64,000 nucleotides of DNA from an uncultured delta proteobacterium (GTDB lineage: Bacteria > Desulfobacterota > Binatia > UBA9968). This document shows, piece after piece, positions 4,123-43,289 of the stretch (positions are counted from its first letter, which is position 1; each line of letters starts with the position of its first letter). Both the position numbers and the translations under genes were made by a program. The notes beneath the pieces were generated by a model, which was not told where the DNA came from, ran no database searches, and saw only the letters and a list, made by a program, of their open reading frames with translations. The stretch spans positions 128,001 to 192,000 of the forward strand of contig CAVSHR010000009.1 in the NCBI GenBank assembly GCA_963727625.1, read 5' to 3'.

Positions 4123-5430
4123 ATGACCATAGATGACTTTTGGCTCGAAGCGCTTCTGATCTTCGCCTTAATTTTTGCCAACGGTTTTTTTGCCGCTTCG
4201 GAAATCGCCATGATTACGATGCGCAAGAGCCGCATCGCCACCTTGTTGGAAAGAGGCGTCAAATCCGCCGCCATCGTCGCCCGATTAAAAGACGATCCCG
4301 ATCGCTTCCTCGCTACCGTGCAGATCGGCGTCACCCTGGTCAGTTCTCTGGCATCCGCCATCGGCGGCGCAGCGGCCATCGGCTACTTGAAGCCGCAGAT
4401 CGCCGCATTGCCTTTCGCCGCGCGTTGGTCTGAAGCGATCGCCCTGATAATCGTTGTCGTGCCGATTTCTTATTTTTCGCTCGTGCTCGGCGAGCTCGTG
4501 CCTAAATCTCTCGCGCTCAGATACTCTGAGCAGATCGCCTGTTTCGTCGCCCGGCCCATCGAGCTCCTCGCCCGCACCAGCTTTGTCTTCGTCAAGGCGC
4601 TGACGGCGTCGAGCAACGCGGTGCTGCGCCTGCTCGGCGGCAAGGACGCCGAAGGCGCAAGCTTCATTTCGGTGGACGAAGTCAAGTCGCTGATCCGCGA
4701 GGGCGCTGCCAAGGGAATCTTCAACGAGACCGAGAAGGAGCTGATTCACAGCGTATTCGAATTCGCCGACACGGCGGTCAAAGCGGTGATGATCCCACGC
4801 ACAGAGATTCACGCGATCGAGGCCCACTCCTCCCTCGCCGATGCCGCCAAGAGCTTTGTCGAAAGCGGCTTCTCACGCATTCCCGCTTATGAAAGCGAAC
4901 TCGATAAAATCATCGGTATTGTTTACAACAAAGACGTTTTTAAAGCGCTCCAGGAAAAGAGTGATTTTCGCGTGCGCGACCATCTCCACCCGGCCTTTTT
5001 CGTGCCCAGCACGCTGCCGATCAGCGAGCTCTTAAAGCAGCTTCAGCGCCGCCGCCTAGCCATGGCTCTGGTGGTCAACGAGTTCGGCGAAGTCGAAGGG
5101 CTGGTCACCCTGGAAGATCTGGTTGAAGAGATCGTCGGCGAGATTCGCGACGAATATGATCGCGAAGAACGCGGGCCGGTGGAGCGCCTGCCAGACGGCT
5201 CCATGGTGATTCAAGGCTCGGCGCTGCTCAAAGACTTAAAAACCGATTTTGATCTACCCTTTGAAGAGTCCCCGGACTACCACACGCTTGCGGGATTTAT
5301 GCTCGCCCGGCTAAAGCGCATTCCGCGTGGCGGCGAATGGGTCGAGGAGCACGGCCACAAGCTAACCATCGTCGATATGGAAGGGCGGCGCATCTTGAAA
5401 ATCAAGTCGGAAAAAACCGTCGCGGCGTGA
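4123..5430 (+). CDS. HlyC/CorC (CNNM) family membrane protein with CBS pair and CorC domain
   Basis: ANGFFAASEIA, FLATVQIGVT, LVLGELVPK, VMIPR, GFSRIP, GLVTLEDLVEEIVGEIRDEYD. ATG at 4123 follows AGGAGAGG. Confidence 0.92.
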   Translation: MTIDDFWLEALLIFALIFANGFFAASEIAMITMRKSRIATLLERGVKSAAIVARLKDDPDRFLATVQIGVTLVSSLASAIGGAAAIGYLKPQIAALPFAARWSEAIALIIVVVPISYFSLVLGELVPKSLALRYSEQIACFVARPIELLARTSFVFVKALTASSNAVLRLLGGKDAEGASFISVDEVKSLIREGAAKGIFNETEKELIHSVFEFADTAVKAVMIPRTEIHAIEAHSSLADAAKSFVESGFSRIPAYESELDKIIGIVYNKDVFKALQEKSDFRVRDHLHPAFFVPSTLPISELLKQLQRRRLAMALVVNEFGEVEGLVTLEDLVEEIVGEIRDEYDREERGPVERLPDGSMVIQGSALLKDLKTDFDLPFEESPDYHTLAGFMLARLKRIPRGGEWVEEHGHKLTIVDMEGRRILKIKSEKTVAA

Positions 5431-39709: not shown

Positions 39710-40656
39710 TCATGGCAAAAAGCTGAGGTCGACGATTTGCGCGACGGTCAATCCTTTGGCTTTCGGGTCCTCCCGGGCAAAGTCTGCTATACATCCGCTT
39801 CAAGTCCCTTGATCGTCGGGCGCCCATCGTCCGGAAGGGAACGACTATAGACGTCAAACGCCTTCTCCGCGATCTCGCGGTCGTTCAGTCTGCTGAGCGC
39901 CATCATTTTTCGGACCGCCTCCTCCTTATGGGTTTTGAAAAAACGGATTGCTTCGAGGTAGGCGGCCATGAAGCGCCTGACGAGCGGCGCCTGCGCCTGG
40001 AGATATTCCTCCCGCGCCACGATGTTGACGTGAGGGAATTCGACGCCCTTGGCAACGAAATCGAGGAGCGGGTTCAGGCCGAGCTTTTGCGCCGCCAGCG
40101 CCTCTTCCGGGCTCAGGACCGTGGCGTCGATCGTTCCGGCTTTGAGCGCCACCAACCGGGACTGCGAGCCCCCGACCTGGAGGATCGTGACGTCGGCAGG
40201 GGTCAAGCCCAATTGCCCGAGCGCGAGTCGGACAACGAAGTCTGTGTTACTGCCAAAACGGCTGATGCCGATCTTTTTGCCACGCAACTGCTCTGAGTTC
40301 GTGATGCGGCTGCTGGTGATCAAAACGTACGGCAAAATGTTGGTGACGCCGCCGATGATTTTGAGCCTAGCGCCCCTCAGATAGGCGTTGAGAAACGGCG
40401 GGCCGCCGGTTTGGAGGAGATCGAGACTCTTCCCTATCAACGCTTGCGTCGAGAGCGAACCGCCGGCGATGAAGACCATTTCGAGCGTAAGGCCGTGTTT
40501 GCGGAAGATGCCGGCGTCCTGTGCGACGTAAAGCGGCGCGGCTCCGTAAAAACCGTTGAAGCCGACGTGCAGCGTCGTGGACTGAGCAGCGGCGGGTCGT
40601 GCGCTAATCAATAAGAGAGCGAGCACTAAAATTGCATGGATGGTGATCCGTTTCAT
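39710..40656 (-). pseudogene. NMT1/THI5-like ABC substrate-binding protein with a frameshift near the 3' end
   Basis: Main frame stops at 39787 (…IKGLEADV*). The family-typical tail ADFAREDPKAKGLTVAQIVDLSFLP* continues in another frame to 39710. Confidence 0.7.
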
Positions 40657-40911
40657 ACCGACCTCCATTAATCGCACCTAAATTGCCTCTTATGGTCGGT
40701 GTCGGTCAAGACAATAAATTATTCGTGCTCTTTTCCTTTTTTTAACGCTGCGACGTCGCGACCCCTGACACAAGAGCACATTTCTGTAGACAAAAACTTC
40801 AACACTAAAAGCTTACCGAGACTCTTCTGAACAGGTATAGTTATTCTGTCCATATCGAAATGAAGGATAGCGGAGGATTCACCTATTCCCCCGGACCAAG
40901 AAAGCCACAAG

Positions 40912-42408
40912 ATGACGCATGCAGATAACAACCCTGCCGCCGCGCGATTTGCCTTCGACAATACCTATGCGCGCGAACTCGAGGGTTTCTACGTGCCTTG
41001 GAAGTCGGCGCAAGTGGCGCGGCCCAGGTTGATTAAGCTCAACCGTGAGCTGGCTGAAGAATTGGCGCTGGATGCCGGTGCTCTCGATTCCGAGGAAGGC
41101 GCAAGAATCTTTGCCGGCAATGAGACACCCGAGGGAGCGGTCCCCTTGGCCCAAGCGTACGCCGGCCACCAGTTCGGCGGCTTCGCGCCCCAACTTGGCG
41201 ACGGGCGGGCGCTGCTGCTGGGCGAGGTGATCGACCGCAGCGGACGTCGTCGTGACATTCAGCTCAAAGGTTCGGGCCCCACCCCCTTTTCGCGTGCCGG
41301 CGACGGCCGGGCAGCCCTCGGGCCCGTGTTGCGTGAATATCTGATCGGCGAAGCGATGCACGCGCTTGGTATCCCGACCACCCGGGCGCTTGCCGCAGTC
41401 GTCACGGGCGAGCCCGTCTATCGCGAGACTGCGCTGCCGGGCGCGGTTTTGACGCGCGTCGCTGCCAGCCACATCCGTGTCGGCACCTTCCAAATCTTCG
41501 CCGCCCGCGGCGAGGCGGGCAAGGTGCGTCGCCTGGCCGATTACGTCATCGATCGCCATTACCCGGAGCTGAAGGGCCACACGAACCCTTATCTGGGATT
41601 GATCGAGCGCGTGTGCGACCAACAAGCGGCGCTCATTGCCGGCTGGATGCATGTGGGCTTCATCCATGGCGTGATGAACACCGACAATATGGCGATCTCC
41701 GGTGAGACGATCGACTACGGACCATGCGCCTTCATGGATCATTATGATCCGGCCACCGTCTTCAGCTCCATCGACGCGCGCGGCCGCTATGCCTACGCCA
41801 ATCAGCCCAACATAGCGCAGTGGAACCTCGCGCGGCTGGCGGAGACGCTCTTACCCCTGATCGATGCTGATAAACACCGCGCCATCGCACGCGCCACCGA
41901 GACGGTCAACGCCTTTCCGGAACAATACCAACGCCGCTGGCTCAAAGGCATGCGCGCCAAGCTCGGCCTGATCGATGAGGACGAGGCCGACCTCAACCTC
42001 GCCGAGGGATTTCTCAAGGCCATGCAAGGCAACAAAGCCGATTTCACGCTGGCTTTCCGTTACCTCGCCGATGCGGCCTTAGGCCAGGAGAAATCACTTC
42101 GCGCGCTGTTTGCCGATCCGTCGGCCTACGATGACTGGAGCAGACACTGGCGGGCGCGACTTTCGCGCGAGGCGGTGGCACCTTCGGAGCGAGCGCAGGC
42201 GATGCGGCGCGCCAATCCCGCGTTCATTCCGCGCAATCATCGAGTCGAGGAAGCCTTGAGCGCTGCAGTGGAACGGGACGATTACGCGCCTTTTACGACG
42301 CTGCTGAATATCCTATCACGCCCCTTCGACGATCAGCCGGAGCTTGCCGCCTTCGCCGAACCTGCGCCGGAAGGACGCGAGCGCTACCAAACTTTCTGAG
42401 GCACATGA
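40912..42408 (+). CDS. selO: Protein adenylyltransferase SelO/YdiU; candidate selenoprotein (TGA at 42397 = Sec, stop at 42406-42408)
   Basis: [56 protein letters not shown]. 3' end TAC CAA ACT TTC TGA GGC ACA TGA reads YQTF(U)GT*, against the usual Y.TFCGT. Confidence 0.9.
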
Positions 42409-42432
42409 CTCACGCGTCCGGGTGACGCGAAG
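42400..42432 (+). promoter_or_regulatory. Putative bacterial SECIS element
   Basis: Stem CGCGTC (42413-42418) / GACGCG (42424-42429) with loop CGGGT beginning 19 nt after the in-frame TGA; G at the second loop position. Confidence 0.55.
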
Positions 42433-42533
42433 AATTTTCCAGGGGAAAATTTGACACATTTGGATGGTCGCGCAATTCTTCCATCGAAACGAATCGCTTG
42501 TGGATGTTTGAAAAGGAGCTAGGTCGACGCGGC

Positions 42534-43289
42534 ATGGCGCAAAAATTCTACGTAGTATGGGCAGGGCGGCAGACCGGCGTATTCACTGATTGGGCGACTA
42601 CTCTGCGGGCCGTGGACGGGTATGCTGGGGCGCGCTTCAAGTCCTATCCGACCCGCGCGGATGCAGAGGAAGCTTTTCGCAGCGGCGCCGCAAGCGTTGG
42701 GCCCAAAACGCCGAGCAAGCAAAAGAGCGGCACAGATAATAGCGAACACCGCGCCGCGCATACCGCTCACCGGTTCGATGTCAGCATTTATTGCGACGGC
42801 GCCTGCGAACCCAACCCCGGCAATGCCGGCTCCGGCATCGTGGTGTATCGAGCCGGCAAACTCGCTGAATTATGGTATGGCCTGTACAACCCCATGGGGA
42901 CCAACAACACCGCCGAACTGAACGCGCTCTATCACGCCTTGCGCATGGCCGAAGCAGAAATCAAAGCCGGCCACACCGTCGAGGTGTGCAGCGACTCCGC
43001 GTACTCGATCAACTGCATTCGGAGTTGGGCACCGAACTGGGAAAAAAAAAGCTGGAAAAAACCCGGCGGCGAAATCAAGAACCTGGAAATCATCCAGGAC
43101 TGTTACGCGATCTACCGGCGCATTAAAAAAGAACTCACGCTCACCCACGTCGCCGGCCACGCCGGAACCGAAGGCAACGAGCTCGCCGACCGCATGGCCA
43201 TGCTCGGCGCGCAGCGTAAAGAAAAAAAACTGCGTCTGTATCGGGAAAAATTGCATATTCCGACGCTGCTCAAGCTGCGGGCGGGGTGA
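42534..43289 (+). CDS. rnhA: Ribonuclease HI with N-terminal hybrid-binding (Cauli_VI/viroplasmin) domain
   Basis: KFYVVWAGRQTGVFTDW, IYCDGAC..NPG, TNNTAEL, SDSAY, IKNLE, HVAGHAG..GNELAD. Confidence 0.9.
   Translation: MAQKFYVVWAGRQTGVFTDWATTLRAVDGYAGARFKSYPTRADAEEAFRSGAASVGPKTPSKQKSGTDNSEHRAAHTAHRFDVSIYCDGACEPNPGNAGSGIVVYRAGKLAELWYGLYNPMGTNNTAELNALYHALRMAEAEIKAGHTVEVCSDSAYSINCIRSWAPNWEKKSWKKPGGEIKNLEIIQDCYAIYRRIKKELTLTHVAGHAGTEGNELADRMAMLGAQRKEKKLRLYREKLHIPTLLKLRAG

Follow-up and report, generated by a model that had tools for sequence, protein, structure and literature searches.

A predicted selenocysteine-containing SelO in a Candidatus Binatia lineage, with a candidate SECIS hairpin beyond the stop codon

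Introduction

Where does the selO gene of an uncultured soil-dwelling Candidatus Binatia bacterium end, and what does its first in-frame TGA encode? In the window analyzed here, a contiguous stretch of 64,000 nucleotides to which all positions refer, the selO frame closes with TAC CAA ACT TTC TGA GGC ACA TGA (42385-42408, plus strand). A preliminary description of this DNA had read the same end, YQTF and then TTC TGA GGC ACA TGA with two in-frame TGAs, and had held that standard annotation shortens the gene. Both points are borne out: Table 11 reads the first TGA as a stop, selO is conventionally called as the ORF 40912-42399, and three residues are lost. The recoded CDS occupies 40912..42408 on the plus strand and comprises 498 residues (MTHADNN...RYQTF-U-GT, then stop). 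On the same strand, the candidate selenocysteine (Sec) codon, U496, lies at 42397..42399, the tail Gly497-Thr498 (GGC ACA) at 42400..42405, and the true stop TGA at 42406..42408.

Judging from the genomic sequence and that of its relatives, it is very likely that this selO encodes a predicted selenoprotein, its first UGA being read as Sec by means of a hairpin in the 3' UTR. The same decoding had been put forward in the preliminary description, and it is supported by the Sec machinery of the genome, the recurrence of the TGA, a hairpin linked to the TGA, and the Gly-Thr tail.

A full-length SelO

The selO product matches Pfam PF02696 with 397.9 bits (cut-off 22.8) over residues 14-467, and its residues 8-496 align full-length with the solved SelO/YdiU chains 9jym, 6iii, 6k20, and 6eac (E = 4.7e-105 to 1.1e-103). 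The HGVMNTDNM and DYGP motifs, which have a catalytic role, are conserved between the product and the solved chains. By family membership, we predict the full-length product to be an AMPylase (nucleotidyl transferase) of the SelO/YdiU type. In each of the four solved chains, the residue opposite U496 is the antepenultimate Cys. Ten more distant Cys-form SelO proteins of the phylum end in ...CGT-stop, and the Gly-Thr tail past the TGA is predicted to restore this ...CGT-COOH ending.

TGA and TGC forms among related genomes

We typed the C-terminal codon in the 38 related genomes that have a C-terminal selO locus and found TGA in 23 (the present genome and 22 others) and TGC in 15. The alternative codon is always Cys (15/15 non-TGA relatives), and two genomes with TGA come from a different family within the order. 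The sequence past the Sec TGA is retained in frame as GGN ACN stop in 23/23 Sec forms, with synonymous variation only: Gly is encoded by GGC in 12, GGT in 8, and GGG in 3, and Thr by ACC in 21, ACA in 1, and ACT in 1. In the protein search, the stop codon that follows is TGA in 23/23 Sec forms, and TGA (11), TAA (2), or TAG (2) in the Cys forms. Among 185,579 species genomes scanned for the motif, the form Y-[QRK]-T-F-U-G-T-TGA is confined to this Binatia lineage.

These counts bear on a rival reading in which the TGA exists in this record alone, through nonsense mutation, pseudogene formation, or misassembly; only the bare codon speaks for it. The preliminary description had treated a TGA private to the strain as evidence against Sec. 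It is not private: 23/38 typed related genomes carry it, 22 of them other species-level genomes with independent assemblies, and it recurs in 73/91 metagenome contigs and in 22/31 pattern matches among species-representative genomes, the latter being largely the same as the typed genomes. The remainder of selO is intact, at 78-89% identity to full-length relatives. A private mutation or assembly error is refuted by this recurrence across independent assemblies, and we assign it a negligible probability.

Several loci were left out of the 23/15 count: an N-terminal fragment (L040), a 37%-identity fragment (L046), duplicates of counted genomes (L042, L045), and a second, partial copy in each of G004 (L043) and G003 (L044), both TGC. 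Genomes whose matches did not include the C-terminal locus were likewise left out, namely G065 and G068, flagged with one TGA, and G047, G048, G051, G054, G063, and G074, flagged with none. Fragments shorter than 480 aa (L039, L041) were excluded from the tree and from the count of Cys columns. Unpublished genomes outside the 38 are G059 (one fragment, 47/90 tally) and G005, G062, and G076 (77/90 selA tally). The flag of one TGA at L086 was dropped, the codon lying outside the tblastn alignment. Among sequencing runs, exact-match DNA contigs from X1 (the best, share 0.37) and X2 reach only 42312, short of the TGA. A contig from an RNA-library run (X17, record 15) covers 42251-42408 with 23 differences and comes from a relative; it is evidence neither of transcription of this gene nor of where its ends lie.

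The hairpin downstream of the stop

The candidate SECIS hairpin lies in the 3' UTR at 42413..42429 (plus strand), with arms at 42413-42418 and 42424-42429 and the loop CGGGT at 42419-42423. Its stem is a perfect 6 bp, CGCGTC/GACGCG; its base is 13 nt past the first UGA, and no part of the 17-nt element falls within the reading frame. Measured to the start of the loop, the spacing is 19 nt from the first TGA and 10 nt from the second, and the 6-bp GC stem, loop, and both spacings are exactly those of the preliminary description. Published bSECIS criteria comprise a loop of 3-9 nt, a stem of 4-16 bp, a G in the first two loop positions, a distance of 16-37 nt from the UGA, and a free energy of -7.5 kcal/mol or lower (PMC13188914). 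The selO hairpin falls within all of them (loop CGGGU of 5 nt, G at position 2, 6 bp, 19 nt, -7.9 kcal/mol), while the 10 nt from the second TGA to the loop are below the 16-nt minimum.

How often would such a hairpin arise by chance? Among 1432 stop-to-stop frames of this genome that have at least 300 codons and end in TGA, 67 (4.7%) are followed by a hairpin that satisfies the published bSECIS model; under a stricter control (spacing of 16-20 nt, stem of 5 bp or more, energy not above -9 kcal/mol), 10 (0.7%) remain. Because of the 4.7% chance rate in the same genome, the hairpin by itself is modest evidence, and the weight for the Sec reading comes from the comparison with relatives, not from the hairpin alone. 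Compared with shuffled sequences, the fold of 42385-42450 is unremarkable (z = -1.34), and an Rfam scan of 42300-42520 with E up to 10 matched no family. A covariance model scores 64.2 bits at the selO hairpin and nothing else in the 6.6 Mb genome above 16.1 bits. Perfect 5-bp stems that carry a CGGGN loop and follow a TGA were also sought across the genome. There are 80, of which 15 lie 10-18 nt downstream of a TGA, and the search was uninformative.

Conservation and decay of the hairpin

The hairpin core, GCGTC-CGKGN-GRCGC, is present in 23/23 TGA forms and intact in 0/15 Cys forms, and no Cys relative with the same hairpin was found, which the preliminary description had named, together with a private TGA, as speaking against a Sec reading. 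Since the relatives are kin, the 23/23 and 0/15 are not counts of independent events. Folding of positions +9 to +42 gives a mean of -9.4 kcal/mol (sd 1.7) for the Sec forms versus -3.7 kcal/mol (sd 2.4) for the Cys forms, and model R1 gives 64-70 bits for the three Sec loci tested and values between 42 and 9 bits for Cys loci. All bSECIS criteria are passed by 13/23 Sec forms and 0/15 Cys forms. The other ten Sec forms have a 5-bp stem that agrees with the first three criteria and narrowly misses -7.5 kcal/mol when the hairpin is evaluated alone; folded in context, these hairpins reach -7.3 to -8.8 kcal/mol. The distance from TGA to hairpin is constant to within one nucleotide across the Sec forms. 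Over 72 distinct Sec-form sequences, the core shows 98-99% identity; the spacer has 74%, the downstream sequence 66%, and the wobble base of the Gly codon 47%.

Covariation in the stem is not significant, the observed score being reached in 146/500 shuffles. Of the six pairs, four are invariant in the test, and the outer pair is CG in 7, UA in 3, and unpaired in 16. In the set of 72 sequences, the outermost stem pair is a C.A mismatch in 42. In one variant from metagenomes (L135, 86% protein identity), the stem, of 8-9 bp, is for the most part unlike the others, with a G-rich loop still at 19-20 nt. Because the covariation is not significant, the case for the hairpin rests on conservation tied to the TGA and on this divergent variant rather than on compensatory change.

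The pattern of conservation can be set against the plainest alternative, in which translation simply stops at the first TGA, leaving a protein that ends in ...YQTF, three residues short, and the hairpin serves the stability of the transcript 3' end, termination, or some other role. That is how Table 11 reads the gene, and the 4.7% of long TGA-ended frames with a passing hairpin show that such a neighbor can occur by chance. An ordinary stop would leave the tail, retained in frame through synonymous changes only, and the near-constant hairpin-TGA distance unaccounted for, and the hairpin decays in just those Cys forms that would need a terminator or stabilizer equally. Moreover, neither promoter nor terminator sites turned up in a scan of 42000-42800, and the stem is followed by AAGAA ahead of TTTT, where an intrinsic terminator has its T run directly after the stem. 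We consider an ordinary stop quite unlikely.

Selenocysteine machinery and a model of decoding

The preliminary description had named selA, selB, selD, and selC as the genes to look for, and all four are present in the genome. The tRNA-Sec, with the anticodon tca (UCA), reaches 76.7 bits (cut-off 47), and selA (607.5 bits), selB (397.5 bits), and selD (377 bits) are each above their curated cut-offs. The selD gene carries one in-frame TGA, at KAAG-U-AAKLGP, and the organism therefore already decodes UGA as Sec. The SECIS of this selD, read by eye as GUGCAA-GUC-UUGCAC about 33 nt past the UGA, differs from the selO hairpin. Across the family, selA is present in 20/23 genomes flagged with a TGA-SelO; the three misses are MAGs with completeness of 93, 66, and 92%.

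A full Sec pathway also argues against read-through of the TGA without Sec, whether by near-cognate Trp or Cys or by Cys carried on tRNA-Sec, which would yield a sulfur or Trp protein. Two further observations point the same way: the SelB-type hairpin stands at the spacing demanded by the bSECIS model, and the relatives' alternative codon, TGC in 15/15, makes the classic Sec/Cys pair. None of the observations favors such read-through in particular, and it appears improbable to us.

Decoding of the first UGA as Sec would involve the following steps. The ribosome would arrive at the UGA at 42397-42399, and the hairpin at 42413-42429, with its G-rich loop 19 nt past this codon, would hold SelB with Sec-tRNA(Sec), from which SelB would deliver selenocysteine at the UGA. 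Gly and Thr would be read next, and translation would finish at the second UGA, which would escape recoding because it is too close to the hairpin. The product would end in ...YQTF-U-G-T, with Sec at the antepenultimate position that is Cys in characterized bacterial SelO.

The tree requires at least two Sec/Cys changes on well-supported branches. We infer that Sec was ancestral in the lineage and that repeated Sec-to-Cys replacement was followed by SECIS decay.

Cysteines and a candidate redox partner

The selO product has two Cys residues, C235 and Cys272. The latter, encoded by TGC at 41725..41727 (plus strand) within DYGPCAFMD, is invariant in 36/36 full-length relatives (21 Sec, 15 Cys), and C235 is present in 29/36. 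A third position of interest is Arg491 (CGC, 42382..42384, plus strand), five residues ahead of Sec, which is Cys in most Cys-form relatives: the Sec forms have R in 15, H in 7, and C in 1, and the Cys forms have C in 11, G in 2, and R in 2. Fisher's test of Cys at -5 against the Sec/Cys state gives 1e-5, a value that ignores relatedness, and an independent-pairs test allows no inference because only two pairs lie on well-supported branches.

Sec496 may provide redox sensing or switching, in line with the redox-regulated AMPylase supposed in the preliminary description; the most plausible route would be a selenylsulfide with the invariant Cys272, the presumed redox partner, which sits beside the DFG-equivalent DYG motif. 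More tentatively, this could be an independently evolved Binatia selenoenzyme in which the Sec496-Cys272 selenylsulfide gates AMPylation, with the -5 Cys co-selected as a helper thiol upon Sec-to-Cys replacement (R/H-xxxx-U to C-xxxx-C); we hold this fuller scheme possible but rather doubtful. If true, the lineage would offer a natural replicated experiment on what selenium contributes in SelO beyond sulfur. A Cys272-Cys476 disulfide is reportedly formed in P. syringae SelO; its numbers map uncleanly onto chain 6eac, and we set it aside as evidence.

Comparison with known systems

E. coli and Salmonella YdiU and P. syringae SelO (6iii, 6k20, 9jym, 6eac) have HGVMNTDNM and D-[YF]-GP motifs identical or nearly identical to those of Binatia SelO. 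They differ from it in having Cys rather than Sec, with the ending ...SC-x-x instead of ...TF-U-GT. The Cys of the activation loop in those proteins (FICNHSD) has no counterpart in Binatia SelO (VFSSID), and the Binatia-invariant C272 after DYGP is Phe in their chains. According to the available part of one report, YdiU/SelO proteins have AMPylation and UMPylation activities (PMC12409994).

A bacterial Sec-SelO has a precedent. The preliminary description knew of none, and this no longer holds: deep-Sep (mSystems 2025) predicted a Sec-containing SelO-like protein in Desulfosediminicola ganghwensis IMCC35004 (PMC12013277), and a 2026 review includes this SelO-like selenoprotein with PF02696 (PMC13188914). 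In the accessible portion of these sources, the D. ganghwensis protein resembles ours in being of the bacterial SelO family, with one predicted Sec, a TGA with Cys homologues, and a bSECIS-like structure past the TGA, and it is, like ours, a computational prediction. It comes from a different lineage, Desulfosediminicola as opposed to Candidatus Binatia; on the same portion, the likeness is one at the family level. The kind of protein was therefore already predicted in 2025, and what is new is a well-documented case from another lineage, in which Sec has apparently given way to Cys more than once and the decay of the SECIS can be seen. The case also documents a systematic annotation error: Sec-form selO genes are called three residues short, and their products therefore go unrecognized as selenoproteins.

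Little is understood of what the C-terminal Sec or Cys does in SelO, and recombinant production of vertebrate SELENOO is difficult; a lineage with closely related Sec and Cys species (23 versus 15) is a tractable system for the role of Sec in this AMPylase. In both Binatia SelO and human SELENOO, Sec occupies the antepenultimate position. By motif position, U496 would correspond to the human Sec. As described in the consulted part of the literature, human SELENOO carries Sec667 in a CxxU motif near the C-terminus, and 75Se labeling and redox behavior via Sec have been reported for it (PMC3994087). Set against that CxxU motif, the Binatia tail is R-Y-Q-T-F-U, with no Cys three residues ahead of Sec. 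The SECIS elements differ as well, that of SELENOO being a eukaryotic kink-turn element far downstream and that of Binatia a minimal bacterial hairpin 13 nt past the UGA.

The Binatia gene is a clear natural example of a bacterial 3' UTR SECIS and of SECIS decay after Sec-to-Cys replacement, and its 17-nt element is minimal and entirely outside the reading frame. The recent review places bacterial SECIS elements within coding regions (PMC13188914). By Sec position, the Lys-Cys-Sec-COOH DUF466 proteins of Campylobacter, from a family unrelated to SelO, are a precedent for a bacterial 3' UTR SECIS: in the part of the preprint available, their Sec is C-terminal (bioRxiv 10.1101/2022.07.06.499078), and because it lies at or next to the C-terminus, the SECIS must lie past the stop. 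In its architecture, the Binatia hairpin is like the minimal upper stem-loop of E. coli fdhF, both being short hairpins with an apical-loop G at a fixed short distance past the UGA. In the fdhF SECIS, this G is some 20-odd nt from the UGA. The Binatia hairpin differs from that of fdhF in having another sequence, no evident bulged U, and a position wholly beyond the coding region.

The selO gene and its C-terminal codons

The selO open reading frame runs on the forward strand from 40912 to a TGA at 42397–42399. Its product belongs to the SelO family (profile match to PF02696, 397.9 bits) and matches the solved E. coli/Salmonella YdiU and P. syringae SelO chains with E ~1e-104. In the alignment to these chains, the residue that the TGA is predicted to encode, Sec496 (U496), falls on the conserved antepenultimate Cys. 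The frame continues past this codon with GGC ACA (Gly-Thr) and a second TGA at 42406–42408, giving the translation ...RYQTF-U-G-T-stop. Further along the same strand, a perfect 6-bp stem, CGCGTC/GACGCG (42413–42418 and 42424–42429), closes the loop CGGGT (42419–42423), which starts 19 nt past the first TGA and 10 nt past the second. On re-reading the window, the preliminary description of the frame, both TGAs, the stem, the loop and the two distances proves exact. Its interpretation, that the first TGA is read as Sec with a SECIS in the 3′ UTR, is supported by the Sec machinery, the conserved tail and the linkage of the hairpin to the TGA, and we consider the predicted insertion of Sec at this codon very probable.

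The gene looks monocistronic. Its downstream neighbour encodes an RNase H with an RNase H1 N-terminal domain (PF00075 + PF01693; 42534–43289, forward strand), and its upstream neighbour, on the opposite strand, an NMT1/THI5-like substrate-binding protein (39787–40677); the domain matches give neither an evident link to selenium or redox chemistry.

Sec machinery of the genome

The assembly (6.6 Mb, 15 contigs), of which the window is C9:128001–192000, is 98.45% complete with 6.3% contamination. selA, selB, selD and tRNA-Sec, which the preliminary description suggested looking for, are all present: selA (607.5 bits), selB (397.5 bits) and selD (377 bits) adjoin one another at G000:C5:715112–719466, and tRNA-Sec (anticodon tca, 76.7 bits versus a cut-off of 47) lies ~49 kb beyond them at G000:C5:768830–768920. 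selD itself contains an in-frame TGA, at KAAG-U-AAKLGP, which together with this machinery predicts that the organism already makes at least one selenoprotein. A hairpin read by eye, GUGCAA-GUC-UUGCAC, lies ~33 nt downstream of the selD TGA.

Alternation of TGA and TGC among relatives

Using the SelO protein with U read as C as the query, we searched 41 relatives and 90 genomes of the family and examined the C-terminal codons of all loci obtained, which typed 38 genomes with a C-terminal locus. The codon at the Sec site is TGA in 23 (Sec forms), two of them from another family of the same order, and TGC in 15 (Cys forms); the TGA is thus not private to this genome. All 23 TGA forms continue with GGN ACN TGA, the Gly codon being GGC in 12, GGT in 8 and GGG in 3, and the Thr codon ACC in 21, ACA in 1 and ACT in 1. 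Since both codons are kept throughout and vary only synonymously, they are under purifying selection as Gly-Thr. Read-through yields a ...C/U-G-T-COOH ending common to ten more distant Cys-form SelO proteins of the phylum. The hairpin follows the same division: GCGTC-CGKGN-GRCGC, starting 12–14 nt past the TGA, occurs in 23/23 TGA forms, and an intact copy in none of the 15 Cys forms. Folding of the +9 to +42 interval gives a mean of −9.4 kcal/mol (sd 1.7) for Sec forms versus −3.7 kcal/mol (sd 2.4) for Cys forms.

Several features vary around this site. The true stop (42406–42408 in the window) is TGA in 23/23 Sec forms from the protein search and TGA in 11, TAA in 2 and TAG in 2 Cys forms; its uniformity in Sec forms could reflect a constraint of SECIS context or simple ancestry. 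Position −5 (Arg491 in the window, 42382–42384) is Arg in 15, His in 7 and Cys in 1 of the Sec forms, and Cys in 11, Gly in 2 and Arg in 2 of the Cys forms (loci L022–L065), so that most Cys forms read C-Y[QR]TF-C. One possibility is that this Cys was co-selected as a helper thiol when Sec gave way to Cys; the comparison is uncontrolled for kinship and holds only two independent pairs on well-supported branches. In each of two genomes (G004, locus L043; G003, locus L044), an additional partial copy of the selO C-terminus lies within a few kb of the full gene: an open frame of ~97 aa that is 69–70% identical to residues 409–498 and ends in CGT. In two others, selO is interrupted by frame changes that leave two or three adjoining pieces (G018:C13:143336–144815 and G068:C14:2683–4178), with the TGA tail kept in both; these are frameshifted pseudogenes or assembly indels.

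The hairpin as a probable SECIS element

Taken alone, the selO hairpin is modest evidence. Among 1432 long TGA-ended frames of this genome (stop-to-stop, at least 300 codons), 67 (4.7%) are followed by a hairpin compatible with the published bacterial SECIS model and 10 by one that passes a stricter version (spacing 16–20 nt, at least 5 bp, −9 kcal/mol or lower), and the local fold around the selO hairpin does not stand out from shuffled sequences (z = −1.34). The bSECIS criteria in the Fig. 2 legend of a 2026 review (PMC13188914) are a loop of 3–9 nt, a stem of 4–16 bp, a G within the first two loop positions, a distance of 16–37 nt from the UGA, and an energy of −7.5 kcal/mol or lower. The window hairpin agrees with every one (19 nt, 6 bp, CGGGU, −7.9 kcal/mol), as do 13/23 Sec forms; the remaining 10, with their 5-bp stem, fail the energy threshold only, and none of the 15 Cys forms satisfies all of them. 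A covariance model of the element scores 64.2 bits at selO and 16.1 bits (E ~1) at the next best site in the whole genome, so the hairpin is not a member of a repeat family.

Over 72 distinct sequences, identity is 98–99% in the hairpin arms and 94% in the loop; it is 74% in the spacer, 66% downstream and 47% at the Gly wobble base. Covariation is not significant, with 146/500 shuffles reaching the observed score: four of the six stem pairs are invariant, one changes from U-A to U-G, and the outer pair is C-G in 7, U-A in 3 and unpaired in 16 of the 26 sequences counted. The covariance model gives 64–70 bits on the three Sec loci tested and graded scores of 42 to 9 bits on Cys loci, which we read as decay of the SECIS following replacement of Sec by Cys. 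Three Cys loci (L023, L024, L049) that group with a Sec locus (L051) at 95% branch support retain a broken yet recognisably homologous 5′ arm. An A-run followed by a TTTCACCAGC-like sequence recurs ~5–20 nt past the hairpin in many Sec forms (alignments A1 and A2), and also in several Cys forms without the hairpin.

Proposed mechanism and relation to known SelO proteins

The gene, the codon, the conserved tail, the hairpin with its link to the TGA, and the Sec machinery are observed; from them we infer the recoding steps. SelB with Sec-tRNA(Sec) would bind the hairpin while the UGA sits in the A site, Sec would be inserted, followed by Gly and Thr, and translation would then terminate at the second UGA, whose 10-nt distance from the loop is under the 16-nt minimum of the model. 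That a bacterial SECIS can work past a stop codon has engineering precedent. Natural precedent for such a location is provided by proteins ending in Cys-Sec-COOH (10.1101/2022.07.06.499078).

Proteins of redox metabolism are AMPylated by SelO enzymes (PMC12409994). Human SELENOO carries Sec667 in a CxxU motif; it incorporates 75Se, and its redox behaviour through Sec667 is peroxide-dependent (PMC3994087). The window SelO has only two Cys, C235 and C272; C272, in DYGPC directly after the DFG equivalent, is present in 36/36 relatives and C235 in 29/36. On this basis, we propose speculatively that a Sec496–Cys272 selenylsulfide might act as a redox switch, which would fit the data.

The preliminary description knew of no bacterial Sec-SelO. 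The kind is already a computational prediction: the 2026 review lists a 'Selenoprotein O-like protein', PF02696, with one Sec (PMC13188914), the case being that of Desulfosediminicola ganghwensis IMCC35004, predicted by deep-Sep (PMC12013277). As listed, this case corresponds to the window SelO by family and the single Sec. The literature searched ties no Sec-SelO to Binatia or Binatota, although the supplements of the published case may list homologues from the lineage. The window thus adds a second lineage for predicted bacterial Sec-SelO, a family-wide Sec/Cys polymorphism in which SECIS decay is visible, and a SECIS lying wholly in the 3′ UTR.

Evolutionary history

A quick maximum-likelihood tree of 36 full-length proteins, computed without their 12 C-terminal residues, requires 11 Sec/Cys changes on its best topology, only two of them forced by well-supported branches, and the Sec/Cys labels are as scattered as shuffled ones. 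Sec forms share what is essentially one SECIS sequence, so the simplest reading is a single origin of Sec in the lineage and several losses. selA is found in 77/90 family genomes, including 20/23 flagged as TGA-SelO (the misses being 93, 66 and 92% complete) and 13/15 with Cys-SelO; replacement of Sec by Cys thus took place in organisms retaining the Sec trait. The selO tree departs from genus and family labels, with both genomes of one family (f2) nested inside another of the same order (f1), and two records titled Acidiferrales and Pseudomonadota (L088, L089) carry a selO 82–86% identical with the same SECIS. The mismatch suggests that genes were transferred, contigs mis-binned or submitter labels loosely assigned.

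Wider genome and metagenome scans

We scanned the genomes of 185,579 species, one per species, for the exact motif Tyr-[Q/R/K]-Thr-Phe-TGA-Gly-Thr-TGA. Both TGAs were part of this motif and are therefore invariant in scan-derived loci by construction, so that an unbiased view of the second stop comes from the 23 protein-derived loci alone; the motif did not include the hairpin. Of 31 matches, 22 fall at selO gene ends, each followed by the same hairpin. Protein identity to the window SelO is 79–89% for 21 of these and 68.6% for the last (L097), a fragment of 35 residues at a contig end. Their record titles read Candidatus Binatia, delta proteobacterium or Deltaproteobacteria, except for one Acidiferrales and one Pseudomonadota. 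The other nine matches have no SelO match and are attributed to chance.

The same motif in metagenome contigs returned 91 loci: 69 with a SelO match, four further fragments at contig ends that share this tail and the hairpin, and 18 chance matches. The canonical hairpin core is present in 65 of the 69. Two loci (L155, L210) have intact variants with stems of 6–7 bp and loops GGG or GGU. In another Sec-form selO (L135, oriented position 1645 onward; 86% identity), the stem AGCGAGCC ... GGUUUGCU (8–9 bp) is largely different and the G-rich loop keeps the 19–20 nt spacing from the UGA; no other locus shows so clearly a retained structure with a replaced sequence. A distant SelO (L154, oriented position 4403; 55% identity over 496 residues) has TGA-GGG-ACG-TGA at the same site and no downstream hairpin fitting the bSECIS model; the codon could be plain nonsense, or the locus could belong to a second lineage that uses a different SECIS.

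Of 401 genomes drawn evenly from the phylum, 23 have a SelO match, with TGA in the window's genome only. The SelO proteins of this draw show two C-terminal types, ...Y.TFCGT and ...CSMLSCSS, all with Cys. The second type, seen in nine phylum relatives (L077–L085), has Cys in all nine, with Ser in place of Cys at the first position concerned in L083, and its CxxC-SS tail resembles the CxxU-SS with which human SELENOO ends.
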